NCBI RefSeq assembly: GCF_902713615.1
Contig: NC_052150.1
Span: 115,505,700 to 115,569,699 of the forward strand
Direction of reading: 5' to 3'
From: Scyliorhinus canicula
Lineage: Eukaryota
DNA: 64,000 nt
Part shown: in pieces, positions 4,147 through 47,500 of the stretch
How the letters are laid out: every line of letters begins with the position of its first letter
Position numbering within the stretch: position 1 is the stretch's first letter
Program-made: the position numbers and the translations under genes
Notes under the pieces: generated by a model
The model's database searches: none
What the model was told of the DNA's origin: nothing
What the model saw: only the letters and a program-made list of their open reading frames with translations

Positions 4147-4653
4147 GATATTGCAGGTATACGTGGTGGTGAGAGTAGGGGGGGAGCTAACGTTAATTGT
4201 TCAATCTTTGGATGTGTGCCTCAACATGCTATTCAATATCATGTTTGTGACGAGTAGAAGAGGTGGACGGTTGATGGAGAAAGCCGTTATAATGAGTGGA
4301 AATATGCGTACTGCCTCACTTGATGTTTTGTGCGGTTTTGTCATCAAATTGTGAGATGCTATCAGTGCACAAACTATCAGATCATTCATGAAATTCAGAA
4401 TTTCTAATTCAATGGATGGAGGGAGGATGATTTGTTGCAGAGAAATTAACTTAAAACCGGAAACACCACGTAGTGGGATCATTACAATGATGTCACAGGC
4501 AAAAAGGCTCAGCGTGAATTTGATGAACTCTTTGCATCAGGTGCTGAAGACGAGAAATGTGACGGTTTATAAAATGTTATGACTGTGGTTCAAGCTAGCC
4601 TTTTAGAATAATTTCATTAATATGCTTCCTTTACATTTCAAAATGGCAACCAC

Positions 4654-6449
4654 TGTCATAATATACATCCATGTATATAATGGAGTGCAGACAGGCAGTG
4701 ATTGACACACAGGATGACCAGTAAGCACACAGAACACAACAGCCAATCACCAGACAGGACACTACCACTATAAAGCCAGAGGGCACCAGTTTTCCCGCTC
4801 TCTCGGGATCCAGTCTCTGAGACAGTCAGAGTTCGTGAGCATAGCCAGTGCACACACCATGAGGTAGTCAGTAAGTCTGGTCAGGCTAGCATCAGGTCTC
4901 CAGTCAAGTCAGCATAGTGTGAACCCACAGTTGAACATGTAAAATAGTTAGATGTTAAATAAAATCGTGTTGCATCTCATCAAGTGTTGGAAGTCTGTCT
5001 CTCGCTACACTGCATCAAGCGAAGTCCACATCGACCCAGCCTGCCCAACACATCATGTTACCAGGTAGTTATGCTGAAAATTGACGGACCTACCTTCAGT
5101 GAATCAGCGTTGACCAGCAAGCAGCCATCCGGTGATATGGAAAACGTCCGCCCTCCTCCACAGCTCTGCATCGTCGGCAACCTCGGTGCAAATTGGAAGA
5201 TCTTCAAACAAAAGTTCCAGCTCTATCTCGAAGCCACCGACCTCGAGGCCGCATCGGACGCCAGGAAGATCGCACTATTCCTCTCCACAGCCGGGGAACA
5301 CACCATCCACATCTACAATTCCCTTAAATTCACTGAAGGCGAAGACAAGACGAAATTTAAAACAGGCCTGCTGAAGTTCAACAGCCACTGCGACATCGAG
5401 GTGAACAAGAGCTTTGAATGGTACGTTTCCCAGCAGAGGCTTCAGGGTAAGGATGAACCTTTCCAATCCTTTTTGACCCATCTCCGCATCCTCGCGCAGT
5501 CATGTAACTATGACTCGACAACTGATTCCATGATCCGGGATCAGATCGTTTTCGGGGTCCACTCAGATTCCCTTCGCCAGCAGCTCCTGAAAGTCAAGCA
5601 GCTAACCCTCACAATCGCCATCGAAACGTGCGTTCTCCACGAACATGCTAACAACCGGTATTCCCACATCAGGGCGGCAGAAATGGCAAAGCTAACCCCC
5701 CATGAGGCGGAACGGGTGCATGTCATCGCACAAATGCAGGGCCTGAGTCTCGACGAGAGTGGCTATTTTGCGCGCTATTCCTGGGCTTCAGCGCATGCGC
5801 GCCACGACCGAGGGGACGGCGGGACCGACGACCAGCCTGCGCAGGTGCGTACGTCATTCGACCGCACTGCGCATGCGCTTTGGCGCACGGAACACGCTGG
5901 CGTTGGCGTCATGACGTATCCGAATTGTGGCTCCGCCCATTTAAAGCGGCAATGTCCGGCAAAATCACGACAGTGTCTACAGTGTGGCAAGCTTGGCCAC
6001 TACGCAGCCCTTTGCAGATCTTTTCCACTGCCCAGCATCCAGCGATCCCAGCCACGACGCAGGAGCGTCCGTTCAATACAGCAGGCCATGCCAGATTCCG
6101 ACCCCGACAGCCCAACAGATTCTGATGCCGAGTGCCTCAAATCCCCATTCTGGGTGGGCATCATGACAAAGCAGGCGCTGCCTTTCTCCAACATAGTGAA
6201 GCACCTCCCAATCCTAAGCGTGGATCCTGACGACGAGTGGTGTGCTGTCCTCACAGTTAACAAGGCTCGCATCCGTTTCAAGCAGGACACCGGCGCATCG
6301 ACGAACCTCATTTTGAAATCCGATCTCGACACCATCCGCGTCAGACCAAGCATTCTTCCACAGGCCTGCCAGCTCCTTGACTGGAAGTCTGTCTCTCGCT
6401 ACACAGCATCAAGCGCAGTCCACATAGACCCAGCCTGCCCAACACATCA
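4654..6449 (+). mobile_element. Gypsy LTR retrotransposon (family A), internally deleted: 5' LTR 4654-5055, PBS, gag-protease, last ~70 bp of 3' LTR
   Basis: TG..CA LTR with TATAAA and AATAAA; PBS TGTTACCAGG (tRNA-Leu-like TGGTACCAGG); 6381-6449 repeats the LTR 3' end; CCAC on both flanks. Confidence 0.9.
5137..6380 (+). CDS. gag: Gypsy Gag plus start of aspartic protease (within ORF 4984-6528)
   Basis: NWKIFKQKFQLYL, IRDQIVFG, CCHC knuckle CLQCGKLGHYAALC, protease motif FKQDTGAS. Confidence 0.85.
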
Positions 6450-6564
6450 CCACCTACACCAGCAAGAGTGCTTCACATTTTATGCTCAGTACATAGATCG
6501 ATTGCCATTTTTGGAAGGATTTTTTTGAAAATTCAAACATTGACTGAAATACAATAATCTACAG

Positions 6565-15819: not shown

Positions 15820-17800
15820 AGTAGTGCACAGTTGTCAGAGATCTTCCTGTCGGGTACTGCAGAGGTCTGGTCAGTGTGAATCACCGACTCCAGAGCAGAT
15901 TTGACCAGATAACTTTAGCTAGAATTTTATTGTCCACATTCAACAATAAAATGAGTTGCCAATTTATAATTCCTTTCCTTTCCCCCTTCTGCTTGTAGAT
16001 GAGGGTAATGATGCCTCTCCTCATGCATTCTGGCATGCTGCCATCCAGAAACATACCCTTGTACACTTCCAGCAGGTCTGGGTCAATCTTGTCTCACAAA
16101 GCAGAATATAACTCAGCCGGTAAGCCATCGCTTCCGGGGGTTTTGCTCGTTTCAAAGGACTTGACGGCCTTTGTCAGCTTATCCAGTAGTTTGTCCAGGC
16201 TCTCCTGCTCATGATCCTCTAAGACATCCGTGATGGACAACGGGAAGGACTGGGTGGTCATGCTGCCTGTTTGCTTCAAGCCATACAGTCCACCATAAAA
16301 GAATATGCTGATCCTCTGAATGTGAAACTGCGATTACTTTACTGACCTATCTTCTTCCTTCAGGCTGCTGATCACAAAAGTTTCTGTGTGCACCTTTTGG
16401 AGGAAGAAACATGGGTACTTCTCATCCTGTTCCACGGAATGCTTTCTGGACCAGAAGATGACCTTTGGAGGCCTCCGAGGTTAAGAGCAAGGCTTGCTGT
16501 CTCTTCACCTCTTGGAGGTCCTCCATGACATCAACCCCCATCAACTGCAGCCAGAGATGATTCTGCAGGCTTTTCCGGAGCCAGGACATTTTCCCGAGTC
16601 TCTCTCACCTTCTGAACACCTTTGGAGTTGAAGAACCTCTTTGTTCACCTTGATGGCTTCCCACAAGAATGATGGCGACTTAAAGAGGAGTTTCACTGTT
16701 CTCCAACCTTTGTAATCCATCTTGAATTCTTCGAGGTTTTCTGGGTTCAACAGTTTTACATTCAGCTTCCATGTTCACACTCCATTGTCTGGTTTTCCTG
16801 TAAGGTGACAGTTGGCCAGTCGGAGGCAGTGGTCAGAGATGAACTGGTACCGGCTTGACATCGATGGTCCTCACCATGAACGCATGGGACACAAACAGGA
16901 ATTCTATCTTGGGTTGGCCATGTGGTCATGACAATGTGTATCTACACTGCACTCCATCTGAGGATTGCTAAAGACATTGTGCAGTTTGGCATCTTTTAAC
17001 ATTTCGATCAGGAATCTGAATGTGGCGTCCAGTTTGCTGTCGGCCCTGACTGATTGTCCAGCCACATCGATGATGTAGTTGAAGTCGCTTCCCAGGGTGA
17101 CTGGCCTGGAAGTGGCCAGCAACAGTGGGATCTGTTGAAGGACTGATAGCCACTCACTCTTTATGGTCATGGCATACACATTAATCAGTCTGAGGGGAAC
17201 ATTTTCGTATGTGACGCCTGCTGCAAGGACGTGACTGTTCACCACCACCTTAACTTTGGTGATGGTGAAGTTGCCACCCCGCAGCAGAATACCCAGGCCG
17301 GAGGAATGACATTTGTTTCCTTCTGACTAGGTGGATGGCCTGTGGGACCACCATCTCAAACACAGTCTGTAGGTGCGAGGTGCAGTATCCCACACTCCTG
17401 TAGGAACAACAAGTCGGCTGTAATGTTGGCCAGGTAAGCAAAGTTAGCCACACGTTGCGAAGTAGCCTTAATGCATTGCACGTTAATAGATGCAATTTTT
17501 AAACCCATTTTAAAAAGTATATTAACCAGTCACAAAGTCCAGAGTCTATTCAGTTGCAGGTTGAGTTGCTGGATGCGATCCTGCATACTTGTGGTGTTCA
17601 TGAAATGTTTCCGATTTGCAGGTCTGAGAAACCAGTCCAGCTCTGCCTCGGGCCTATAACATTGACCGGGTGACATTGGGGGATTTTGTACCAGTGGTGT
17701 TCTGCGTTGCACTCAGTAGATGTTGGGAATTCCGGGTGATCTTTATCTCAAACGCTGATCTTCCCAGTTTCCTCAGCTGGTGTGTGTTTGCATTTATTTT
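15820..17800 (-). mobile_element. Degenerate Tx1-clade LINE (ORF1 end, EN, RT start), probably Keno-like
   Basis: LRLINVYA, KTPGSDGLPAELY, LLLNVDNKILAKVI; 3'-truncated within RT. Confidence 0.8.
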
Positions 17801-17819
17801 CCTGGATCTCGGATGCGTT

Positions 17820-18876
17820 CTGCCTCGTGGGGTTTAGCTTTGCCGTTTCTGCCGCCCTGATGTGGGAGTACCGGTTGTTAGCATGCTCGTGGAGAACGCG
17901 GGTTTCGATGGTGATGGTGAGGGTGAGCTGCTTGACTTTCAGGAGCTGCTGGCGAAGGGAATCGGAGTGGACCCCGAAAACGATCTGATCCCGGATCATG
18001 GAATCAGTTGTCGAGTCATAGTTACATGACTGCGCGAGGATGCGGAGATGGGTCAAAAAGGACTGAAAAGGTTCATCCTTACCCTGAAGCCTCTGCTGGA
18101 AAACGTACCGTTCAAAGTTCTCATTCACCTGAATGTCGCAATGGCTGTTGAACTTCAGCAGGACTGTTTTAAATTTCGTCTTGTCTTCGCCTTCAGCGAA
18201 TGTAAGGGAGTTGTAGATGTGGATAGCGTGGTCACTGGCTGTAGAAAGGAATAGTGCGATCTTCCTGGCATCTGATGCGGCCTCGAGGTCGGTGGCTTCA
18301 AGATAGAGTTGGAACTTCTGTTTGAAAATCTTCCAGTTTGCACGGAGGTTGCCGGCGATGCGGAGCTGCGGAGGAGTGCGGATGCTGTCCATGTTACCGG
18401 ATGGCTGATTGCTGGTCAACGCAGATTACCTCAAGGTGAGTCCGTCAATTCTCAACATCCAGACCTGGTACCATGATGTGTTGGGTGGGCTGGGTCTGTG
18501 TGGACTGCATTTGATGCAGTGTAGAGAGGGACAGGCTTCCAACATTTAATGAGATGCAACACAATTTTATTTAACATCTAACTATATTACATGCTTAACT
18601 GTGGGTTGACACTATGCTGACTTGACTGGAGACCTGAGGCTCGCCTGACCAGACTAACTGACTACCACATGGTGTTTGCCCTGGCTGCTGCTCACGAGCC
18701 CTAGCTGTCTCACAGGCTGGATCCCAAGAGAGCGAGAAAACTGGTGCCCTCTGGCTTTATAGTGGTCGTGTCCTGTCTGGTGATTGGCTGCTGTGTTCTG
18801 TGTGCTCACTGGTCATCCTGTGTGTCAATCACAGCCTGTCTGCACTCCATCATATAGATGGATGTATATTATGAAA
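17820..18876 (-). mobile_element. gag: Gypsy family A, truncated: 5' LTR 18474-18876, PBS, gag 5' half
   Basis: ORF 17748-18419 nearly identical to Gag at 5137; PBS TGGTACCAGG; LTR homologous to 4654-5055. Confidence 0.9.
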
Positions 18877-19008
18877 CTGGTGATAGGTCCAAGCCAAAGG
18901 CTTAAACCAGCATGAAGTTCTGCCAATAACAGCAGATCTTAAATGCTGTATTCCCTTCTGCTGTCTTCACCAGCTCTTTAAAAAAACTGATGAGAGCAAA
19001 TATTAGAA

Positions 19009-24127: not shown

Positions 24128-25195
24128 CTCACAGTGTTCAACACTTTCTGCATCATTATCGATAACTTCAAGCAGATATTCATAATAATCGTCCTCGGAT
24201 TCAGCATCATCGTCAATCTTTTCACCTGAAAAATATAACTTTGCATACGGATGGAATTATTTGTTAATGAAATAGAGAGCCAAGTTCAAAATCAGCCTTT
24301 TCTTTGGCCACTGATGTGTTGGGTAAGCTGGGTCTATGTGAACTGCGTTTGATGCAGTGTAGAGAGAGACAGGCTTCCAACACTTGAAAAGATGCAACAC
24401 AATTTTATTGAACAACTAACTATAATACATGCTTAACTGTGGGTTGACACTATGCTGACTTGACTGGAGACCTGAGGCTAACCTGACCAGACTAACTGAC
24501 TACCACATGGTGTTTGTTTTAGCTGCTGCTCACGAGCTCTGACTGTCTCAGAGGCTGGATCCCGAGACAGCGGGAAAACTAGTGCCCTCTGTCTTTATAG
24601 TGGCCATGTCCTGTCTGGTGATTGGCTGCTGTGTTCTGTGTGCTCACTGGTCATCCTGTGTGTCAATCGCTGCCTGTCTGCACTCCATTATATACCTGGA
24701 TGTATATTATGACAGCCACCGAAGCTTGGCTTAAAATTCCACCCTGTGGAACTTCAGTGGCACCGAAGAAATTGAAGAACAATTCATTGGATATAGTTCT
24801 TGTAGCTGATCTTGGAGTGCTCTGAACCATGTATTTTGGTTTTGTTCAGGTGGTTGTGATTGTTTTCTGCCCTCCCTGCAGTCGAGTGTGCAGCCTGTGC
24901 AGCCTATGATTTGTCGTTCAGCCAAGAATGATTTCAGCGGTCATCAGTCCAGCTGATACATTTTGGTGATCACGTCATTTGTGAAATGCTCATTAGGCCC
25001 AAATGTAAACGCCAGAGTGAAGCTCCATGGCTTGTATTGTATCATCTTCTTGTATCATGCCATTGAGCCTGTGCACGTTCTTCAAGACTGTTAACCAGAA
25101 TTGCGGAATGCTCACTGGCAGTTCCGTCCCCTTGTCTGGTTTGTCGCCCTAAACTGGGATTTCTTCTAAATCCTCATACACCGTTCACACTGTAA
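24128..25195 (-). pseudogene. NAP1L: Intronless NAP1-like (nucleosome assembly protein 1) domain, decayed, abutting Gypsy protease and split by a solo LTR
   Basis: Ordered motifs IPQFWLTVLKNV..MIQEDD (25077-25109), SFTLAFTFGPNEHFTNDVITK (~24962-25024), IIGCTGC (~24890-24910), RTISNELFFNFF (24765-24800), ADFELG (24279-24296), LYFSGEKIDDDAESEDDYYE acidic tail. These are collinear with NAP1L1 IPEFWLTVFKNV / FHFEPNEYFTNEVLTK / IMGCTGC / TVSNDSFFNFF / ADFEIG / LYFTGEAIEDDD. Confidence 0.9.
24312..24714 (-). mobile_element. Solo LTR, Gypsy family A
   Basis: Full-length homolog of 4654-5055; TG..CA; 5-bp TSD GCCAC. Confidence 0.93.
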
Positions 25196-26107
25196 TGTCT
25201 TGCAGGATTCACTGGACTCAGGTGTCCAGCTATCTTCTAGGATATTTAGTCGCTTGATTCGATTCAGGGATTTGCATGATTTTATCTCAAGTACTGAGTC
25301 GACACCCATGTCTACAATGTGAAAGAGTATTGTGTGTTTCATGCCTGCCACTGAGAGCACTAGCTCGCAAGCATCGAAGATCTCTAGAGTTCTTGTTCCA
25401 GAGTCTATCATCAGCCCTTGCCGATCAGCAAAGTCCTGCTGCACGTTTAGTTTTTGCAAAGCATGTCAACTCATGAGGTTGATTGGCGCTTTAGGGTCTA
25501 AGTCACAACGAATGAAAGCATCATTCAGCATTACCTTCAACTTTAGTCCAGACATAAAGGTTTTCGGAGTGTTCTTATTATCTTCATTCTTTCTTATGAT
25601 ATTGTCCCCACCCCTGTCCCTCAGAGTCCTCTGGTTTCTCCCCGCGATGAGATTGATGGAAAACTGTTCTTCAGTGTTTATCACATCTACTGAATGCACC
25701 GTTCATCCAGGGTCCATGGAGCGCGCAAAACATTGTTTTGTAAAGTGCCCCACGTGGCCACATCTGGAATAAACTTTTCCAAAGGCTGGAAATTGCCGCG
25801 GGGCATGTCGAGTGCCACACTTTTGGCACAAGATGGCGGCGGCGGCTCCTATCGGCTGCTTAAAATGGCTGTCCACATTGAGACCACATTTCTTCATGAT
25901 GTGCGTCACAGCACTAATGGCACTGGCTTTTTATTTCATGTTTGCACCAAAGTTGTTTGAGCAGAGTATGCCTATTCTTTGTGCATCTTATCTCACTTCC
26001 CTGGCAAATAAATCTTCACTGCCTTTTCCAACACCAAATGTTCCTCCCGCAATACTATCGCCCAAAGCTTATCATCAAGTAAACCAAAGACAATTTGGTT
26101 GCGGATT

Positions 26108-26366
26108 AATAACAATAATCTTAATTGTGACAAGTCGGCTGACATTAACACTGCAATGAAGTTACTGTGAAAAACTCCTAGTCGCCACATTCCGGCGCCT
26201 GTTCGGGTACACAGAGGGAGAATTCAGAATGTCCAATTCACCTAACAGCACGTCTTTTGGGAATTGTGGAGGAAACTGGAGCACCCGGAGGAAATCCACG
26301 CAGACACGGAGAACGCGCAGACTCCGCACAGACAGTGACCCAAGCCGGGAATCAAATCTGGGACCC
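26108..26366 (-). mobile_element. HE1-like SINE, 5'-truncated, CATTGCAGTGTTAATG-tail type, inside gag
   Basis: Core and tail match the SINE at 50357. Confidence 0.8.
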
Positions 26367-27022
26367 TCAGGTCAACTGAAGTTGCATGACTGGGCCTTCA
26401 GCCTAAAGTCCATGACGAAACTGTCAAATGATTCGCCAGGTCTCTGGGTATGCATACAGAACATATGGCGCTCAAAGATTTCATTCTTCTTAGGGGATCA
26501 TTGCTTATCAAAGTGCTTCATCACTTCATCAAATTTCTTGTGATCCTCCTCATTATCAAACACACATGAGTTGCACAGTTCGAGCGAGTGCTTGTGGACC
26601 TGCCACTGTTAGCAGCAACGCAATTTACCTTTTATCAGGCTGGTCTTCAGGCCCACGGCCGCAACATAAAGTTCGAACTGCTGTTTGAACAGCTGTCAGT
26701 TCTCACCTACATTCCCGGACATCTGAAGCTGGTGGGTGGCCCTCAGACCATCTCAAGCTTCATCATTTTCTGACATGTTGGGTCGCCTCAGGCTGCAGTT
26801 CACCAGTCCGGTCTTCACTGCCGTCGCTATCTTTAAATCTTCAGCACTCGTAGTACCATGTGTTTGGTCCTTTGTACTTTACAAAGGAATCCACCAAACA
26901 CTTTAACTTGTCCAAACCAGAATCTTTTATAGAGTTGCAGTAAGATAGCAATCTGATTCAGCGTACATTATCATGGAGTCTGCTAACTACTCCTCTGGAA
27001 CGTGCACATAGAACTGACCATT

Positions 27023-27249
27023 TTATTTTTTATAAATTTAGAGTGCCCAATTCATTTGTTCCAATTAAGGGGCAATTTAGCATAGTCAATTCACCTACCC
27101 TGCACATCTTTGGGTTGTGGGAGCAAAACCCACGCAAACACAGGGAGAATGTGCAAACTCCACACGGACAGTGGCCTAGAGGCAGGATCGAACCTGGAAC
27201 CTTGGCGCCATGAGACAGCAGTGCTAACCACTGCGCCACCGTGCTTCCC
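27023..27249 (-). mobile_element. HE1-like V-SINE (T/A-tail type) inside the family C LTR
   Basis: A/B boxes and core; ACTGACCATT repeated at 27013-27022 / 27254-27263. Confidence 0.9.
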
Positions 27250-28218
27250 TCTCACTGACCATTCACATCTATGTCTTATTCCCCTCTCAATATTCTTCTC
27301 AAGATGGTGGGATGTGTCTCTTATATCGGTGTCACAGGTAACATGACCTTGGTCTAGCGACTGCGTGGTGTGTCTCTGCACTGTACAACCACCTGCTGTT
27401 TGGAGGTCGCAAACCATCTGTCTATGATATAGCCCATGGGTATGTCATCACATAAGGTAGGAGTGCAGGTTAGTGATGAGGACTTTAAACTAGTTAAAGG
27501 GGAGGGGGAGGACTCAGGAGGTGTTAGTAATGTTTCCTGAACAAGTAAAAGGAGAGAGAATATGGAAAGTGGCAGGAATCTAACTTCACGCATAGCAGAA
27601 AAGGGGACAACTATGAGAAGAAGGGTGGTCAACGCAGGACTGAGGGTGTTGTACCTAAATGTGGGCATTATACAAAAAAAGGTAAATGGGCTTGTGACCC
27701 ACATTAGAATTGGTGGGTACGATGTTGTGGGCATCTCAGAGGCATGGCTGCAAGGGGATCAGGACTGGGATCTAAGTATCCAAAGATATGTGTCCTAATA
27801 AAAAGGCAGGTGGGCAGAGGGGAGGGGTTGTCTTGTTAGCAAAAAATAAATTAAGTTGATAGCAAGAAACGATATAGGATCAGAAGACGTAGAATCTGTA
27901 TGTAGAGTTGAGGAATCACAAAGGAAAAAGTATCTTGATGGAAGTTAGATACAGTCCCCCTAGCAGTAGTCAGGATATGGGTCAGAAAATAAATCAGGAG
28001 ATAGAAAAGGCATATAAGAAAGGCAGTATTACAATAATCATGGTGGAATTCAATATACAGGTGGACTGGGAAAATCAGGTTGGCAGTGAACCCCAAGAAA
28101 AGGAATTTGTGGAATGTCTAAGAGCTGTTTATTTTTGGAGCAGCTTGTGGTAGAGGCCGTAGGGAACAGGCAATTCTGGATTTGGTGATGTGTAATGAGC
28201 CAGACTTGATTAGGGAGC

Positions 28219-29193
28219 ATAAGAACAAAGAACAAAGAAAAGTACAGCACAGGAACAGGCGCTTCGGCCCTTCAAGCCCGTGCCGACCATGCTGCCCGTC
28301 TAAACTAAAACCTTCTACACTTCCGGGGTACATATCCGTCTATTAACACCCTATTCATGTATTTGTCAAGATGCTCCTTAAACGTCACTGTCGTCCCTGC
28401 TTCCACCACCTCCTTCGGCAGCAAGTTCCAGGCACCCACTACCCTCTGTGTAAAATGCCCCCTCGGAATTGATCCCTCTATCCTGGGGAAAAGTCTCTGA
28501 CTCTGTCTCTGCCCCTCATAATTTTGTAGACCTCTATCAGGTCGCCCCTCAACCACCTTCATTCCAGTGAGAACAAACCAAGTTTATTCAACCTCTCCTC
28601 ATAGGTAATGCACTCTATTCCAGGCAACATCCTGATACATCTCTTCTGCACCCTCTCTAAAGCCTCCACATCTTCTGGTAGTGTGGTGACCAGAATTGAA
28701 CACTATACTCCAAGTGTGGCCTAACTAAGATTCTATACAGCTGCAACATGACTTCCAATTTTTATACTCAATGCCCCAGCCAATGAAGGCAAGCATGCCG
28801 TATGCCTTCTTGACTATCTTCTCCACCTATGTTGCCCCTTTCAGTGACCGGTGGACCTGTACACCTAGATCTCTCTGACTGTCAATACTCTTGAGGGTTC
28901 TACCATTCGCTGTATAATCCCTACCTGTATTAGATCTTCCAAAATGCATTCCCTCACATTTGTCCAGATTAAACTCCATCAGCCATCTCACCGCCCAAGT
29001 CTCCAAACGATCTAAATCCTGCTGTATCCTCTGACCATCCTCATCGCTATCTGCAATTCCAACAACCTTTGTGTCGTCCGCAAACTTACTAATCAGACCA
29101 GTTACATTTTCCTCCAAATCATTTATATATACTACGAACAGCAAAGGTCCAAGACTGATCCCTGTGGAACACCACTAGTCACAGCCCTCCAAT
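28219..29193 (-). mobile_element. CR1 3' portion (second subfamily), antisense, inside the long CR1
   Basis: ORF 28827-29144 YINDLEE..SKFADDTK; (AAGAACA)n tail. Confidence 0.88.
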
Positions 29194-30201
29194 CAGACAG
29201 TGGCCACCATATGATAGAATTCATCCAGTCCAGGTGATTTATCCACTTTCAGACTTTTCAACTTCCCCAGTATCCTCTCCTTAGGGATGGCCACTTCACT
29301 CACCTCTGATGGAGAAGCTGGAAACAAATGTAGCAGTATTACAATTGAATAAAGATAACTACATGACATGAGGGAGCTGCTGGTCAGAATTGATTGGAAA
29401 AGGAGCCTAGCAGGGAAGACAGTGGAACAGCAATGGCAGGAGTTTTGGGAGGTTATTCGGGAGGCACAGCAGAAATTTATCCCAAGGAGGAGGAAACTTG
29501 CTAAGGGGAGGACAAGGCATGCATGGCTGACGAGGGAAGGCAAGGACAGCATAAAAGCAAAAGAAAAGCATACAATATGGCAAGGATTAGTGGGAAACCA
29601 GAGGACTGGGAAGCCTTTAAAAGCAAGCAGAGGACAACTAAAAAAGCAATAAAGTGGGAGAAGATGAAATATGCGTGTAAGCCAGCTAGTAATATAAAAG
29701 AAGAATACAAGAGGCTTTTTTTAGATACATAAAAGGTAAGAGAGAGGCAAGAATGGACATTGGACCACTGGAAAATGAGACTGGAGAAGTAGTAATGGGG
29801 AACAAAGAAATGGCACAGGAACTGAATAGATACTTTGCACCAGTCTTCACGGTGAAAGACAGCAGTGGATTACCAGAACTTCAAGATAGTCAGGGGGCAG
29901 AGGTGAGTGAAGTGGCCATCACTAAGGAGAGGAGGGTACTGGGGAATTTGAAAGGTCTGAAAGTGGATAAATCACCTGGACTGAATGGACTACACTCCAG
30001 GGATCTGGAGGAGATAGCTGAGGAGATTGCGGAGGCATTGGGGGTGATCTTTCAGGAATCACTGGAGTCAGGGAGGATCCTGGAGGACTGCAAAATGGCT
30101 AATGTAACACCCCTAGTTAAGAAGGGAGGAAGGCAGAAGACAGGAAATTATAGGCCGGTTAGCCTGGCTTCGGTCGTTGGTAAGGTTTTAGAGTCCATTA
30201 T

Positions 30202-32107
30202 ATTTTTTTTAATAAACATTTTATTGAGGTATTTTTTGGTATTATAACAACAACACAATAAACAATGTACATGAAACGATAAACATAGTGAAAATCCCTC
30301 CCTTACAGGTCCCACCTTTATGAGCCCCCTACTCTAAGCTAAACTAACCCTCCCCCCCCCCCCCCCCCCCCCCCCTTCTGCCGACGATTAATTTTCTGCG
30401 AAGAAGTCGACAAACGGTGTTGCCACGTCCGGGCGAACCCTAACAGTGACCCTCTCAGGGCTAACTTGATTTTCTCCAAACACAGAAAGCTAGCCATGTC
30501 CAATAGCCAGGTCTCCGACTTCGGGGGCTTTCAGTCCCTCCAAGCAAATAGTATCCGTCTCCAGGCTACCAGGGAAGCAAAGGCCAGAACGTCTGCCTCT
30601 TTCTCCTCCTGGATTCCCGGGTCTTCTACACTCCGAAAATCGCCACCTCTGGACTCAGCGCCACCCTTGTTTTTAACACCGTGGACATGACATCTGCAAA
30701 CTCCTGCCAAAATTCCCTCAGCTTCGGACATGCCCAGAACATGTGGACATGGGTTCCTGGTCCTCCCGCACATTTTACACACCTGTCCTCCACCCCAAAG
30801 AATCTGCTCATCCGGGCCACTGTCATGTGAGCCCAGTGAACAACCTTAAATTGTATCAGGCTGAGCCTGGCACATGTTGCGGACGCGTTGACTCTACTCA
30901 ACGCGTCCGCCCATAGACCACCCTCTATCTCTCCTCCAGCTCCTCCTCCCACTTGCGCTTCAGCTCCTCGGTCTGCGTCTCCTCTGACCCCATAAGTTCC
31001 TTGTAAAAGACCATCCTCTATCTCTCCTCCCGCTCCCTTCTCCTACCCACCCTCTGGAAACTACCCTGTCCTGAATCCCCCTTAGCGTTAGGAGCAGGAA
31101 GGTTGACACCGGCTTACGTAGGAGGTCCCGCACCTGCAGATACCCGACTTTGTTTCCCCTCGCCAACCCAAACTTCTCCTCCAGCGCCCTCATACTCGGA
31201 AAGCTCCCCTCTATAAATATATTCCCCATCCTCTCAATCCCTGCTCTCCACCACATTCGGAACCCCTCCCCATCCATACTTCCCGGACAAACCGGTGATT
31301 ATTACAGATTGGGGACCAGACCGATGTTCCCTCTGCTCCCTCTGCTCCCACATGTCTCCTCCATTGCCTCCCGACTCTCAGGGCCACGATCACCACGGGG
31401 CTGGTGGAGTACCGTGCCAGCGGGAACGGCAGAGGCGCAATTACCAATGCCCTCAAACTGGTGCCCTTGCATGAAGCCGCCTCCATACGGTCCCATGCCG
31501 ACCCCTCCCCCACCACCCACTTCCTGATCATGGCTATATTCGCCACCCAGTAATAGTTACTAAAATTTGGCAGCGACAGCCCATCCTCTCCCCAACTCCC
31601 CAACTGTAGAATGCGCTCCTTATCCGAGTACCTGTGGAATCTCACCACCATTGCATTCGGGGGGTCTCCCGTTCGTGGCTTCCTCGCGAGTGCTCTGTGA
31701 GCCCTGTCCACCTCCAAGGGTTGGGAGAATGCCCCATTTGCCAGCAGCTTCTCAAGCATATCTGCGATGTAAGTCCCAGTGTCCGCTCCTGCGGACCCCT
31801 CCGGGAGCCCAACGATTCTCAAGTTCTGCCGGCGGGACCTATTCTCTAGGTCCTCCACCTTCTCCAGGAGCTTCGTCTGCTGGTCTCTCAGCATCCCCAC
31901 CTCCAACTCCACCACAGTTTGATGTTCCTCCTGCTCAGCCAGTGCCTTCTCCACCTTCTGGATCACCCAATCTTGGGCGTCCAATCTAAGCTCCAGCCGC
32001 TCAATCGACTCTTTTATAGGGTCCAAGCAGTCCTATTTCTGCTTAGCAAAGTCTTCCTGTATAACTTCCTGTGCAACTTACTCCTTCATAGCCGCCACCG
32101 GAAGTCC
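30202..32107 (-). mobile_element. L1 with both termini but large internal deletions (1.9 kb)
   Basis: 5' end GGACTTCCGGTGGCGGCTATG; ORF1 ENRSRRQNLRIVGLPEG; ORF2 C-terminal CCHC; 13-bp TSD TAGAGTCCATTAT. Confidence 0.9.
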
Positions 32108-41587: not shown

Positions 41588-44500
41588 TATTACGGGCCAG
41601 GATTTATGGAACCCCAAAGTGTATCATGGAGTTCACCTGTCCCACAACTTTTAATTAATTTTGGTTATGGGGAGCACCAGGGCCCACTCTACAGGTGTGA
41701 TGCAACGGAGATCTAAAGTGCTTTTAAAACAAAACAGTGTTTATTCTATGAATCCAGTTAACAGTAAACATTTTAGCAACTATCAACTCAAATACTTCCC
41801 CCAAAAACTACAGTACTCTATAAGTAACCCGTAATCTTGCCTAGCAACATCCATAAGTCAAATACCCTCTTTAAAAAGATAGCAGATTTAAATTCTCTAC
41901 TGAGAGCAGTTATCACTTTTTAATTAGCAAGTGATCTTAAGGCATTTATTTCATACAAGAGAGATCAAAATTATACTTGTTTGGCTGGATGTAGCTCCAA
42001 CTCTGAAAATGAAACTAAATGCACACACTGTAGCTGCCAGCTCAATAACGAAAGTAAAAACAGACAGACAGCCCAGCTCCACCCACATTCTGACATCACT
42101 GCAGCTATTTGATAAACACCGATTTATGAAAAGTACTCTCACATGACACCTCCCCCTAAGAAAAATAAATAAACCATTAACTTCAAGATGGTGTCATTTT
42201 TCACCTTTTCGCTTTCCTTTCAGAAACATTGACAGTGAATATACATTTTGTTTAACAAAACAAAACATGGAAACATTTATAATAACATAGTCCATGTTAG
42301 TTCTTCTTCCTCCAACAAACCTGCTCCTTTAAATGTGCTGTCAGATAATGCTAACTGCAATATTTGTGCCAAATCTAAAAGCCTTTTCTTAGTCTCTGTT
42401 CGTATGGTACTACGTGTGACCTTCTCCACCCCAAAAAACTTCGAGGCTCTGAAAGAGCCTTTGTCCACAACACACTCCCTACTTAAATAGATATACCACA
42501 CCTGAAAAGCAACCACAAATATGCTCACCCCTCTATCTTTTTTTTAAAATCATTTTTATTAAGATTTTCACAAAATATAAACAACAAAACAATATTAACC
42601 AAACAACCATAGTAAAAACCAAAAAACAAGAACCAACCCCCCCCCCCCCCCCCCCCCCCCCGTAACTACAAAAACAAAAAAGAAAACAACAAAAAGGAAA
42701 GAGATAACACCCGCCCCATCCAACAAACCCATGTACACAATTCTCCCTCCCATCGAACCAAACCCCCCCCCCGCCCCCGGGTTGCTGCTGCTGCCGGCCT
42801 ATTTCCCTACCGTTCCGCCAGGAAGTCCAGGAAAGGCTGCCACCGCCTGAAGAACCCTTGCACCGACCCTCTCAGGGCGAATTTCACCCTCTCCAACTTA
42901 ATGAACCCCGCCATGTCATTGATCCAGGCCTCTACGCTTGGGGACCTCGCATCCTTACATTGAAGCAAAATCCTACGCCGGGCTACTAGGGACGCAAAGG
43001 CCAGAACACCGGCCTCTTTTGCCTCCTGCACTCTCGGCTCTGCTGCTACCCCAAATATCGCGAGTCCCCAGCCTGGATCAACACTGGATCCTACCACTCT
43101 CGACATCGTGCTTGCTACCCCCTTCAAAAAGTCACCCAACACTGGGCATGCCCAGAACATATGGGCATGGTTCGCTGGGCTCCCCGAGCACCTAGTACAC
43201 CTATCCTCGCCCCAAAGAACCTGCTCATCCTCGTCCCGGTCATATGAACCCTATGCAGCACTTTGAACTGTATGAGGCTAAGCCTCGCACAAGAAGAGGA
43301 GGAGTTCACACTTTCCAGGGCATCTGCCCACGTCCCCTCCTCAATCTCCTTACCCAGCTCCTCTTCCCATTTACCCTTCAGCTCCTCCACCGAGGCCACA
43401 TCCACCTCCTGCATGACGTGGTACACGTCCAAAATCCTCCCCCCTCCAACCCACACCCCCGAGAGCACCCTGTCCCGAATCCCCCGCGGGGGCAACACAG
43501 GGAACCCCACCACCTGCCGCCTGGCAAACACCCTAACCTGCATGCACCTAAACATGTTCCCCGGGGGGGAGCCCAAACTCACCCTCCAACTCACCCAGGC
43601 TCGCAAACCTCCCATCTACAAACAGGTCCCTCAACCTCCTAATACCTACCCTGTGCCAGCTAGGAAACCCCCCATCGACGCTCCCCGGGACAAACCGGTG
43701 GTTCCCCCGTATCGGGGACTCCATCGAGCCCCCCACCACCCCCCTATGCCGTCTCCATTGCCCCCCAAATTTTCAGGGTAGCCACCACCACCGGGCTCGT
43801 AGTATACCTCGTTGGAGGGAGCGCCAACGGCGCCGTTACCAGCGCCTCCAGGCTCGTATTCACACAGGACGCCATCTCCTACCTCTTCCATGCTGCCCCC
43901 TCCCCGTCCATTACCCACTTACACACCATTGCTGCGTTGGCAGCCCAGTAATACCCACACAGGTTGGGCATCGCCAGACCCCCCTATCCCCGCCCCGCTC
44001 CAAAAACACCCTTCTCATCCTCGGGGTCCCATGTGCCCATACAATCTCCGTGATGCTCCTGTTGACCCTCCTAAAAAAGGCCTTCGGGATAAGGATGGGG
44101 AGGCACTGGAACAGGAACAAAAACCTCGGGAGCACCGTCATCTTGACGGACTGCACCCTACCCGCCAGCGACAGCGGTAACATATCCCACCTTTTAAACT
44201 CCTCCTCCATTTGCTCCACCAGCCTTGTGAGGTTAAGCTTGTGCGGGGCCCCAAAGCTCCCCGCCACCTGGATTCCCAGGTACCTAAATTTCCTCCCTGC
44301 CTGCTTCAATGGGAGCCTACCAATCCCCTCCTCCTGATCCCCTGGGTGCACCACGAACATCTCGCTCTTACCCAGGTAATATCCAGAAAAGCCCCCAAAT
44401 TCGCTGAGAATCCTCACCACCTCCGGCATTCCCCCCACCGGGTCCGCCACATACAGCAACAGGTCGTCCGCATAAAGCGACACACGATGCTCCTCCCCAC

Positions 44501-47500
44501 CCCGCACCAGGCCCCTCCAGTTCCCCAACTCCCTCAGCGCCATAGCCAGGGGCTCAATTGCCAACGCAAAGAGCAAGGGGGACAGGGGACACCCCTGTCT
44601 CGTCCCCCAGTACAGCCAAAAGTACTCCGACCTCCTCCTATTCGTGGCTACACTCGCCATCGGGACCCCATAGAGCAGCCTCACCCAACGGACAAACCCC
44701 TCCCCAAACCCAAACCTTTGCAACACCTCTCACAGATCCCCCACTCAACCCTATCAAAGGCCTTCTCCGCGTCTAATGCCACCACTATCTCCGCCTCCCC
44801 TTCCACAGCCGGCATCATAATGACATTCAGAAGCCTTCGTATGTTGGTATTCAACTGCCTTCCCTTTACAAACCCCGTCTGGTCCTCGTGAATGACCCCC
44901 GGCACACAATCCTCTATCCTTGTAGCTAAGATCTTCGCCAACAGCTTGGCGTCTACATTTAGCAGCGAGATCGGCCTATATGACCCACACTGCAGGGGGT
45001 CCTTGTCCCGCTTAAGGATCAAGGAAATCAGCGCCCGCGACATAGTTGGGGGCAAGCCCCCCCTCCCTTGCCTCGTTAAAGGTCCGAACCAACAGGGGGC
45101 CCAACAGGTCCGCATACATTTTATAAAATGCGGCCGGAAACCCATCCGGCCACGGCGCCTTCCCCGACTGCATGCTGCCAATCCCAGTGACCAGCTCCTC
45201 CAGCTCAATCGGCGCCCGCAGTCCCTCCACCTGCTTCTCCTCCACCCTCAGAAATTGCAGCTTGTCCAAGAAGCGCCCCATTCCCCCACCTCCCCCTCTC
45301 CACCGGGGGTTCAGACCGGTACAATTCCCCATAAAAGTCCCTAAAGACCCCATTAACGTCTACCCCCCTCCGCAACACCTTCCCATCTCTATCCTTCACT
45401 CCCCCAATCTCCCTGGCCGTGTCTCGCTTTCGGAGCTGTTGTGCCAGCATCCTACTCGCCTTCTCCCCGTATTCATACACTGCTCCCTGTGCTTTCCTCC
45501 ACTGAGCTTCCGCCATTCTGGTGGTCAGTAGATCGAACCTGGCCTGAAGGCTACGCCGCTCCCCCAGCAATCCCTCCTCCGGAGCCTCCGCATATCTCCT
45601 GTTCACCCTCACCATCTCCCCCACCAATTTCTCCCTCTCTCTCTGCTCTCCCCTCTCCCTATGGGTTCAGATGGAAATCAACTCCCCTCTAATCACCGCC
45701 TTCAACGCCTCCCAGACTGTCCCCACTTGGACCTCCCAGTTATCGTTGGCCTCAAGGTACCTCTCGATACACCCCCGAAATTTCCCGCCCACCTCCTTGT
45801 CTGCCAGCAGCCCCATCTCCAAGCGCCAGAGCGGGCGCTGGTCCCTCTCCTCCCCCAGCCAGAGGTCCACCCAGTGCGGGGCATGATCTGAAATGGCTAT
45901 GGCAGAGTATTCGGCATCCTCCACCCTCGAGACCAGCCCCCTACTCCGGACAAAAAAAATCGATCCTGGAATAGGCCTTATGCACGTGGGAGAAAAACGA
46001 GTACTCCCTGGCCCTTGTCCTCGCAAACCTCCAGGGATCCACCCCTTCCATCTGATCTATAAACCCCCTCAACACCTTAGCCGCCGCCGGCCTCCTACCC
46101 GTCCGGGGCCTGGATCGATCCAATGGGGGATCCAGCACCGTGGTGAAGTCCCCCCCCCCCATGATCAGGCCCCCCCCACCTCCAGATCCAGAATGCGGCC
46201 CAACATGCGCCACATAAACCCCTCATCGTCCCAGTTCGGGGCGTAAACATTCACCAGCACCCACCCGCTCACCCTGCAGCTTACCACTCACCATCACATA
46301 CCTCCCGCCACTGTCAGCCACCACACTTGACGCCTCAAACGACACCCTCTTTCCCACCAGGATCGCCACCCCACGTTTCTTCGCATCCAGCCCTGAATGA
46401 AATACTTGGCCCATCCCTTCCTCAGTCGAACCTGGTCTGCCACCTTCAGGTGCGTCCCTTGGAGCATGGCCACATCCGCCTTCAGCCCCTTCAAGTGCGT
46501 AAACACCCGGGCCCGCTTGACCGGCCCATTCAGCCCCCTCACATTCCAAGTTATCAGCCGGATCAGAGGGCTCCCTGCCCTCCGCTCCCCTGCCGACTAG
46601 CCATAACCAATCCCCTGCCCGCCACTGGCCGCCCCCCGCTCGGCCTGTTCCCCATGGCGGGAACTCTCCCCCCTCCCCCAGCACCCCCTGCATACTCCAG
46701 CTCCTTCCTGGCCATTTCAGCAGCAACCCGGGGGCTAGGACCCCTCCTAGCTGCGCCTCCCCCCTCCACAGCACTCCCGTGAGCCAGCTAAATTTTGCTG
46801 ACCCCGGCGACTCCCGCCACACCTCCGACCCCTCTCCACGTCGGGCTACTCCTCCTCCTCCGTGCCCATCAGCAGGCCCCCCCCCCCCCCCCCCCCCCCC
46901 CAGCTCTTGCGCAGGAAAATAAAATCCAGCAAAGGCCCGCGCTTCTCAGCCCCGACCCCGCCCCCATCACCCCGCAGCACGGGAAACAAGAGGAAAGCCC
47001 GCGCTTTTGCCCTGCCCAACCCCGCCTCCTCTAGGGCAACTCCCATTGCCGGTCCCCACCACCAGCTCCCCGCACTCCCAGTTTACCTCCCTGCCCGAGC
47101 CCGTCCACCAGACCCATACAAAAACACATAAAGACATCGCCCCACCCACCCTAAAGCCAACACACATCCTGCATGAAACAGAGAACCCCCCCTTTCAAAA
47201 AAATAGACACAGTTCCATTTCCATACAAAACCCCATCCCTGACCCTCGGTTTGAGTCCAATTTCTCGGCCTGCACAAAGGTCCACGGCTCCTCCAGGGCT
47301 CAAAATAATGGTGACGGTCCTTGTAGGTGACCCACAGACGCGGCGGCTGCAACACGCCAAACTTCACTCTGTGGAGCACCGCCTTCGTCCGGTTGTACCC
47401 GGCCCTCCGCTTAGCCACCTCCGCACTCCAGTCCTGGTAGATCCGCACCACCGCGTTCTCCCACTTGCTACTCCGCTCCTTCTTGGCCCACCGGAGCACG

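Follow-up and report, generated by a model that had tools for sequence, protein, structure and literature searches.

Capture of host messenger RNA by retrotransposons with long terminal repeats (LTRs) is already known. Crocodilian endogenous retroviruses (ERVs) captured KIT-ligand or nectin3 mRNA and hold it under purifying selection (PMC4299795), bdelloid LTR elements carry extra frames (PMC5408684), and a related phenomenon has been described for the telomeric retrotransposons of Drosophila, in which a host chromatin or silencing gene is captured with a proposed anti-silencing gain (PMC13534243). We analyzed a stretch of 64,000 nucleotides from the catshark Scyliorhinus canicula (NCBI RefSeq assembly GCF_902713615.1, contig NC_052150.1, positions 115,505,700 to 115,569,699 of the forward strand), called the window in what follows. 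On its minus strand the window carries a truncated copy from a non-autonomous, Mag-like Gypsy lineage in which a piece of the host gene NAP1L1, encoding a histone-chaperone domain, takes the place of reverse transcriptase (RT), RNase H and integrase (IN). The existence of this NAP-bearing family is confirmed and it is larger than first noted, and we showed that its NAP part is spliced NAP1L1 mRNA, captured once. Our reading, to which we give a probability of about 0.5, is that of a helper-dependent Gypsy lineage in which NAP1L1 mRNA replaced the three pol enzymes and whose Gag-protease-NAP-tail protein would have blunted histone- and SUMO-based silencing.

The likeness to the crocodilian ERVs lies in host mRNA within an LTR element, in the replacement of a viral gene (by nectin3), in purifying selection and in a non-mammalian vertebrate host. 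However, the crocodilian elements are retroviruses present in a handful of copies, with an extracellular cargo replacing env or forming an extra frame, whereas the NAP elements are Gypsy elements with a nuclear chromatin domain fused to Gag-protease, have lost the pol enzymes, occupy at least 144 loci and form a long ladder of subfamilies. The Drosophila captures are fragments of 140-235 bases that act through Piwi-interacting RNAs (piRNAs) in non-LTR elements, whereas the catshark elements kept about 740 bases as protein. Within Ty3/Gypsy, the Mag lineage, as described from mosquito elements, has a primer-binding site (PBS) for tRNA-Leu or Ser, 5-bp target-site duplications (TSDs) and short LTRs (PMC3286476). 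The NAP elements resemble it in their tRNA-Leu PBS, 5-bp TSDs, short LTRs and gag and pol often in one frame, and a sister family described below has the order protease (PR)-RT-RNase H-IN; they differ by having a host domain and a new tail instead of RT, RNase H and integrase. This Mag-like placement is based on PBS and TSD features, and the nearest named proteins are fish proteins called 'K02A2.6-like' and 'Ty3-I Gag-Pol'.

The multi-copy nature of the family was established in three ways. When 971 bases around the protease-NAP junction of the window were searched against the genome, 846 candidates were obtained, and the junction was crossed in all 39 other loci scored, at 74-84% identity and over more than 100 bases in 37 of them, so that the single-copy junction envisaged in an earlier note on this DNA is set aside. 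A search with the profile PF00956 gave 2,051 candidates, which are not copy numbers, and at least 144 scored intronless NAP loci; most of the 144 start at profile position 60-70 and none begins before position 31. The elements thus hold the C-terminal three quarters of the PF00956 earmuff domain, and the profile cut-off was passed by 7 of 12 natural frames of other copies. Gag or protease lies upstream on the same strand in 108 of 122 distinct NAP-bearing loci (neither was found in 13, and RT alone in 1), and no RT was found within 3 kb downstream of NAP in any of the 122. Finally, the gag-protease DNA of the window was searched alone, blind to NAP. The 39 other best matches comprised 19 known NAP carriers and 20 fetched loci, the latter with NAP in 16, the tail only in 1, a broken end in 3 and RT in none. 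Together, 35 of the 39 continue into NAP and 0 into RT, which answers the doubt that other copies might carry a normal pol after the protease. No RT, RNase H or integrase was found in the NAP elements, and because the Ty3/Gypsy pol order PR-RT-RNase H-IN is found instead in the sister family, to which LTR, PBS and gag tie them, we filed the NAP elements as non-autonomous derivatives.

Complete copies follow a common plan: LTR, tRNA-Leu PBS, gag, protease, NAP, new tail, polypurine tract (PPT) and LTR, flanked by 5-bp TSDs, with uninterrupted interiors of about 3.2-3.4 kb. Paired LTRs were read by script in 25 of 99 loci of at least 6 kb (among the others, 48 had no PBS read, 18 no pair and 8 no 3' end) and are 82-91% identical; of these 25 pairs, 6 have an exact TSD, another 6 have one with a single mismatch, 5 show two mismatches and 8 at least three. 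The S. canicula genome contains tRNA-Leu(TAA) genes to which the PBS is complementary, and a purine tract precedes the 3' LTR. The LTR of the window type gave 2,807 first-look candidates; among its best 40 matches, all 20 that were fetched are solo LTRs, with an exact 5-bp TSD, read by eye, in 9.

Natural stop-free frames span the zinc knuckles or the protease into NAP in several copies, the longest reaching 356 residues. Both anchors of the protease-NAP frame are readable in 63 of the 88 copies that we grouped into subfamilies, in the same frame in 42 (17 of them stop-free) and shifted in 21, and gag-to-protease is also a single frame in copies L006 and L095. Judging from the interior length, the fusion product would have comprised about 1,000 residues. 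A whole open frame occurs in no copy seen, the longest among the scored matches having 696 codons with one stop; every copy seen is decayed, and the family is extinct as far as seen. Two pairs of near-identical NAP elements (G000:C18:81980314 with C18:82072461, and L081 with L089) probably reflect segmental duplication rather than late transposition. Some frames have entered the databases: one copy other than that of the window has a natural frame with the same sequence as an S. canicula RefSeq protein, the RefSeq models P0030 and P0168 are the frames of L104 and L105, and P0167 (S. canicula) together with P0031, P0032 and P0036 (S. torazame) group with element frames. These models are labelled NAP1-like 1 or uncharacterised.

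The window copy itself reads as follows, from its 5' end:

26859..27452, minus strand: 5' LTR, TG...CA, about 350 bp without its insertion, 77-80% match to both LTRs of complete copies.
27019..27252, minus strand: short interspersed element (SINE) within the 5' LTR, seen as a gap in the LTR alignment (repeat families D15, I8, I9).
26845..26858, minus strand: PBS, complement of the tRNA-Leu(TAA) 3' end, with two mismatches in this copy.
25700..26766, minus strand: gag, interrupted by stops, frameshifts and a SINE, from frames and alignment to complete copies.
26108..26367, minus strand: SINE within gag (repeat family I12), from alignment to complete copies.
25730..25828, minus strand: two zinc knuckles, one cysteine altered in each, from the frames of this copy.
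25247..25570, minus strand: protease-like domain without D-T-G, with D-P-K at 25498, from frames and alignment; a natural frame of the same subfamily is predicted to have a retropepsin fold.
24720..25231, minus strand: 5' part of the NAP1L1-derived segment, beginning past the dimerisation helix; the junction was set by aligning older copies.
24312..24719, minus strand: solo LTR of a second Gypsy family, 408 bp, with an exact 5-bp TSD, interrupting the NAP segment.
24138..24311, minus strand: 3' part of the NAP1L1-derived segment and start of the acidic tail; the copy stops at about 24138.

The order LTR-PBS-gag-protease-NAP that the earlier note proposed for the minus strand is thus borne out part by part, as is the solo-LTR insertion at 24312-24719, whose family is distinct from the NAP element. 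The NAP segment is, as claimed, intronless and in the orientation of gag and protease, and one window fragment matches PF00956 with E=3.5e-6; it is not a complete domain, since the profile match starts at about 66 of 266 and the dimerisation helix is missing. Two limits were also redrawn: alignment with older copies moves the host-derived start from about 25195 to near 25230, and of the acidic tail through which NAP was said to run only the very start is present. In other copies the full tail has about 290 residues or more and is mostly not NAP1L1. The 3' part and the 3' LTR, the latter already reported as missing, are absent from the window and from the preceding 10 kb; other copies have NAP between paired LTRs with TSDs outside them. 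The 14-base PBS match is exact in older NAP copies and in the pol-bearing sisters, the window gag is related to the fish Gypsy Gag-Pol proteins P0001-P0004, and the zinc knuckle profile PF00098 is matched in copy L006 with E=0.0013.

An N-terminal piece of NAP1L1 gave 4 matches among 13 candidates and matches just two host genes, NAP1L1 on C20 and NAP1L4 on C9, both multi-exon, as is known for these cellular H2A-H2B chaperones. The spliced coding sequence (CDS) of the C20 NAP1L1 gene aligns to the elements colinearly and in one piece across eight exon junctions, and a mid-exon start at CDS base 276-284 is shared by 15 of 61 loci compared. The N-terminal dimerisation helix of NAP1 is absent from the elements and was never captured. 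Of the 35 rows in a midpoint-rooted protein tree, 15 are elements, 3 of them gene models of S. torazame; these 15 stand on one side of a 100/99 branch, and the rows nearest to that branch are shark NAP1L1. Since the intronless state is also what a chance processed pseudogene of NAP1L1, made by the LINE-1 (L1) machinery inside one Gypsy copy, would show, the marks of such an event deserve attention: no match to the host 3' untranslated region (UTR) and no poly(A) were found inside the element, NAP stands between paired LTRs with the TSDs outside them rather than having its own, the junction recurs at many loci, the fusion is in frame, pol is lost and decay is not neutral. This explanation, raised in the earlier note, is refuted, and its probability is practically nil.

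The S. torazame model XP_072357097.1 joins gag and NAP, and the capture would therefore predate the split of S. canicula and S. torazame. In protein searches this join was found in Scyliorhinus only: a phmmer search against 1.84 billion representatives gave 1,441 matches, among the best 150 of which P0036 alone joins gag and NAP, and a longer-protein search gave 25 matches, none combining NAP with a gag or protease family. P0269, considered as a junction-spanning protein, was rejected as an ordinary Gag-Pol.

A pol-bearing sister family was found beside copy L084, with 1,715 candidates in the genome. It has RT, RNase H and integrase, in the Gypsy order PR-RT-RNase H-IN; its LTRs are 66-80% identical to those of old NAP subfamilies, its PBS is identical to theirs, and the two families have the last ~150 bases before the PPT in common. 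In FastTree phylogenies the sister gag is interleaved with the oldest NAP subfamily, whereas the sister protease stands apart in a clade of its own, a pattern consistent with co-packaging and recombination. The capture would be explained most simply by a double template switch onto NAP1L1 mRNA during reverse transcription, out at the end of the protease and back about 150 bases before the PPT. For the source of the tail, those last ~150 bases are the only part that matches the sister, and a search of ESM Atlas with the tail gave no usable match. At L084 itself (6143-6562; G000:C12:133.10 Mb), a NAP element on one strand and its pol-bearing sister on the other meet head to head inside gag, which is what an inversion or inverted recombination would leave. 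The genome also holds a young Gypsy family (L175-L204, e.g. G000:C5:159641336), distant from the NAP elements, with many near-identical copies and open Gag-Pol frames of 1,433-1,449 codons; its intact elements of 1,436 codons were set aside as a helper, their gag being just 32-42% identical.

The history of the family was read from a DNA tree of 110 copies (12 of the 122 were dropped for low identity or cover). The tree is a ladder along which the distance from the host gene grows from 0.18 to 0.81 changes per site, with end branches of 0.085-0.11 throughout, and the LTR pairs average 84-88% identity in every group. Because end branches and LTR pairs are uniform along the ladder, the master lineage must have changed fast and in a brief period, and every copy seen is old. 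Identity of the subfamilies to the host gene falls from 84% (79-84% in the oldest copies) to about 62% at the DNA level, the window copy belonging to the farthest subfamily. These figures bear on whether the captured piece acted as RNA, steering piRNAs against host NAP1L1: the oldest copies are 79-84% identical to host mRNA, and the Drosophila telomeric elements with nxf2, piwi and aub provide a precedent, but in that same study almost no host-targeting piRNAs occur at 79-82% identity (PMC13534243), the later subfamilies have drifted far beyond this, and constraint falls on amino acids. We regard an RNA decoy as highly improbable. A side branch of 7 copies (L256, L253, L237, L099, L247, L238 and L260), with a stem of 0.09, carries a separate 9-base deletion almost where the late subfamilies have theirs, and here two lineages ran in parallel.

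Selection was studied on 88 of the 110 copies, grouped by hand along the ladder into seven groups. Net Nei-Gojobori omega is 0.25-0.42 between groups and 0.44-0.51 within groups (0.37-0.62 and 0.61-0.69 with a transition weight of 2.5). Counting single-base changes, replacement to silent changes are 72:46 between groups and 1,249:480 for private changes, a ratio of 0.60 with P=0.011. Stops are 0 among about 150 between-group changes versus 3.8% of private changes (P ~0.003), the recurrent ones being located at CpG or Trp codons. The ratio of second-position to fourfold-site divergence along the lineage is lowest in gag at 0.12 [0.04-0.33], followed by the late protease at 0.25 [0.10-0.53], NAP at 0.44 [0.23-0.74] and the late tail at 0.62 [0.36-1.11], and within groups it is 0.68-0.79 for NAP; excluding CpG-prone sites widens the intervals and leaves the direction for NAP unchanged. 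On a conservation panel of 28 distant NAP homologues with at most 55% identity, the window subfamily retains 57 of 65 conserved core NAP residues versus 18 of 56 variable ones (P=2e-10), whereas individual copies depart at 0.14 of conserved and 0.21 of variable residues; an earlier panel of 46 rows that included close vertebrate rows gave the same result. Both deletions shared along the ladder are of 9 bases and in frame, and 55 of 149 private indels are divisible by three.

As conserved residues are kept and variable ones lost, we concluded that NAP was maintained as a folded protein, though less tightly constrained than gag. This agrees with the proposal of the earlier note that the domain evolved as a protein inside a non-autonomous element, and is not the neutral course with dN/dS near 1 that it had held open. 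One could argue that NAP was a filler, needed as an open frame for RNA stability or cis-packaging with irrelevant amino acids, given that no stop was fixed, that the shared deletions are in frame, that omega is moderate and that one conservative test is non-significant. The selective retention of conserved residues, against private decay that is near even, and a tail motif that outlasted its flanks weaken this explanation, and we find it improbable. The gag value raises another alternative, a defective-interfering parasite, whose Gag fusion would co-assemble with helper particles and favour its own RNA, NAP and tail tuning assembly or poisoning the use of helper RNA. Gag being the part under the strongest constraint is consistent with it, as are the loss of the protease motif and the race-like course of a lineage that ran the whole ladder with copy ages barely differing; yet it gives no reason for the specific retention of NAP-family core residues, and we think it distinctly unlikely.

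The protein changed in its protease, core and tail. The protease motif D-T-G is readable in the sisters and in older subfamilies (e.g., L092, with PF13650 at E=3e-4) and is lost from the later subfamilies; in that of the window the D-T/S-G motif is absent, the glycine position being found in 0 of 26 copies. The domain is still constrained after the loss, and a natural frame of the same subfamily is predicted to adopt a retropepsin fold, with per-residue confidence (pLDDT) mostly 70-92. For the core, a natural frame of a neighbouring subfamily is modelled as a NAP earmuff, with the NAP1L1 structure 7UN6 as best match (E=1.5e-19). Cellular NAP1L1 and NAP1L4 thus share with the elements the earmuff sequence and predicted fold, and differ in that the elements lack both the dimerisation helix and introns, have a less acidic core and end in a different, longer tail. 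This tail is acidic, with 59 D/E versus 6 K/R over its first 210 residues in L007, and has basic runs at its C-terminus. A motif combining three or four hydrophobic residues with serines and acidic residues recurs in the tails of 44 of 88 copies and in all seven groups, where about 2 are expected from shuffles; between groups the motif is 49-67% identical, and the flanks are 4-9% identical upstream and 13-25% downstream (38 copies anchored). The SUMO-interacting motifs (SIMs) of DAXX and PML have an hXhh or hhXh core beside serines and acidic residues (PMC8616421), a pattern that the tail motif fits as a putative SUMO-binding site. The tails of L092, L098 and L126 have two SIM-like motifs about 55-65 bases apart, which suggests local duplication in part of the lineage.

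Several described systems give these changes a possible meaning. Chromatin factors silence retroviral DNA that has not integrated (PMC10624344), and the chaperone DAXX has an acidic tract and, at its C-terminus, a SIM that is required for ERV silencing (bioRxiv 10.64898/2026.03.21.713205). The NAP elements have a histone-chaperone domain, an acidic tract and a SIM-like motif in that order, a likeness of design for which we claim no homology; DAXX differs in being a host repressor and an H3.3-H4 chaperone. One worm NAP monomer makes histone contacts, and its acidic tail binds too (PMC9128123). On our preferred reading, the ~1,000-residue fusion would have co-assembled with helper Gag-Pol, the source of RT and integrase, and may have entered the nucleus alongside the cDNA through its basic C-terminus. 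There, the NAP earmuff and the acidic tract would contact histones, and the SIM-like motif may contact SUMO, competing with or diverting DAXX/PML-type repressors. Retropepsins act as dimers, and the dead protease domain may have been a dimer scaffold substituting for the lost helix. The fusion protein was likely particle-borne and would have acted on the element's own new DNA. A part in chromatin assembly or silencing evasion, proposed from the start, would suit these features, with ordinary nucleosome assembly argued against because the dimerisation helix is missing. The most specific version, a DAXX-like counter-silencing protein made of a stolen NAP1L1 domain, re-dimerised by a disarmed protease, equipped with a new SUMO-binding tail, delivered with the cDNA and spread in a fast helper-dependent burst of perhaps two thousand catshark copies, is tentative and open to considerable doubt.

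Two other functions would use the same parts differently. The fusion could have been an integration tether, NAP and the tail motif steering the helper integrase complex to nucleosomal or SUMO-rich chromatin with no anti-silencing action, much as the chromodomain steers integration in chromoviruses. It occupies the place of pol in the sister family and would be co-packaged, and contacts with histones and SUMO would serve a tether no less than a decoy; the scored copies, however, are spread over most large contigs and form no obvious clusters, and we consider a tether unlikely. Alternatively, NAP could have been an acidic chaperone in the cytoplasm or the particle, keeping basic Gag or nucleocapsid soluble and aiding RNA packaging with no action on chromatin. 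The NAP fold was retained, human Nap1 chaperones the basic HIV-1 protein Rev and improves its RNA binding (PMC13255070), and the NAP-family protein SET guards HIV cDNA from autointegration (PMC2644782). Since core acidity drops along the lineage, and the SUMO-motif-like site and the basic C-terminus are left unexplained, we give a particle chaperone a small share of the probability.

Several observations weigh against a helper-dependent anti-silencing element. No pol-bearing element was found to carry the LTR of the window subfamily itself, all 20 fetched top matches of this LTR being solo, and the match between it and the sister LTRs is limited to 43-58 bases. If each multi-hit codon is counted as two replacements, the ratio of replacement to silent changes becomes 0.87 (P=0.45), and the upper bound of the NAP lineage interval, 0.74, overlaps the within-group range, which indicates moderate constraint. 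The core, which has 30 acidic residues in the host, retains 17 in the window subfamily, and both structure models were driven by supplied alignments. The tail pattern was defined after being noticed, anchoring inflates its core identity, and short SIM patterns are degenerate (PMC8616421). The solved NAP-histone complexes contain a NAP dimer (PMC9128123), and the dimer helix is gone from the elements.

The window also contains other elements. A second Gypsy family has three copies in it, at 4653-6449 (plus strand), ~17751-18881 (minus strand) and 24312-24719 (minus strand); it has an LTR, a PBS likewise of the tRNA-Leu type, gag and some of the protease before it is cut short, with a frame of 521 codons at 4963-6525, and its LTR was seen in 12 of 204 loci checked. 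Much of the window is filled by fragments of the long interspersed element (LINE) type, on the minus strand at 31214-32032, 43914-44729 and 27850-29720, which we take to be ORF1-like (first open reading frame) and RT-like from the appearance of their frames.

No description of a NAP-carrying LTR element was found in the literature, as judged by titles and abstract starts of the papers listed; Repbase and Dfam lay outside this search, and a catalogue entry may exist. In the main text of the catshark genome paper, 'nap1' and 'nucleosome' do not occur (PMC11979771). The family is real and large, and its function is what we infer. The known captures by LTR elements that we compared concern few copies or short fragments, whereas the NAP element exchanged every one of its enzymes for a chromatin domain, remained mobile over a long succession of subfamilies and kept shaping the captured protein. 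The ladder is a natural record of the parts of NAP1 that are useful to an element, and it makes testable both the function of an earmuff without the dimer helix and the existence of protein counters to SUMO-dependent silencing in animal retrotransposons. It also matters for gene annotation in Scyliorhinus: the 'NAP1-like 1' models XP_038676838.1, XP_038646186.1, XP_038669414.1, XP_072347442.1, XP_072353948.1 and XP_072357097.1, from two species of the genus, are or resemble pieces of the element, and such RefSeq models would mimic an expansion of the gene family.

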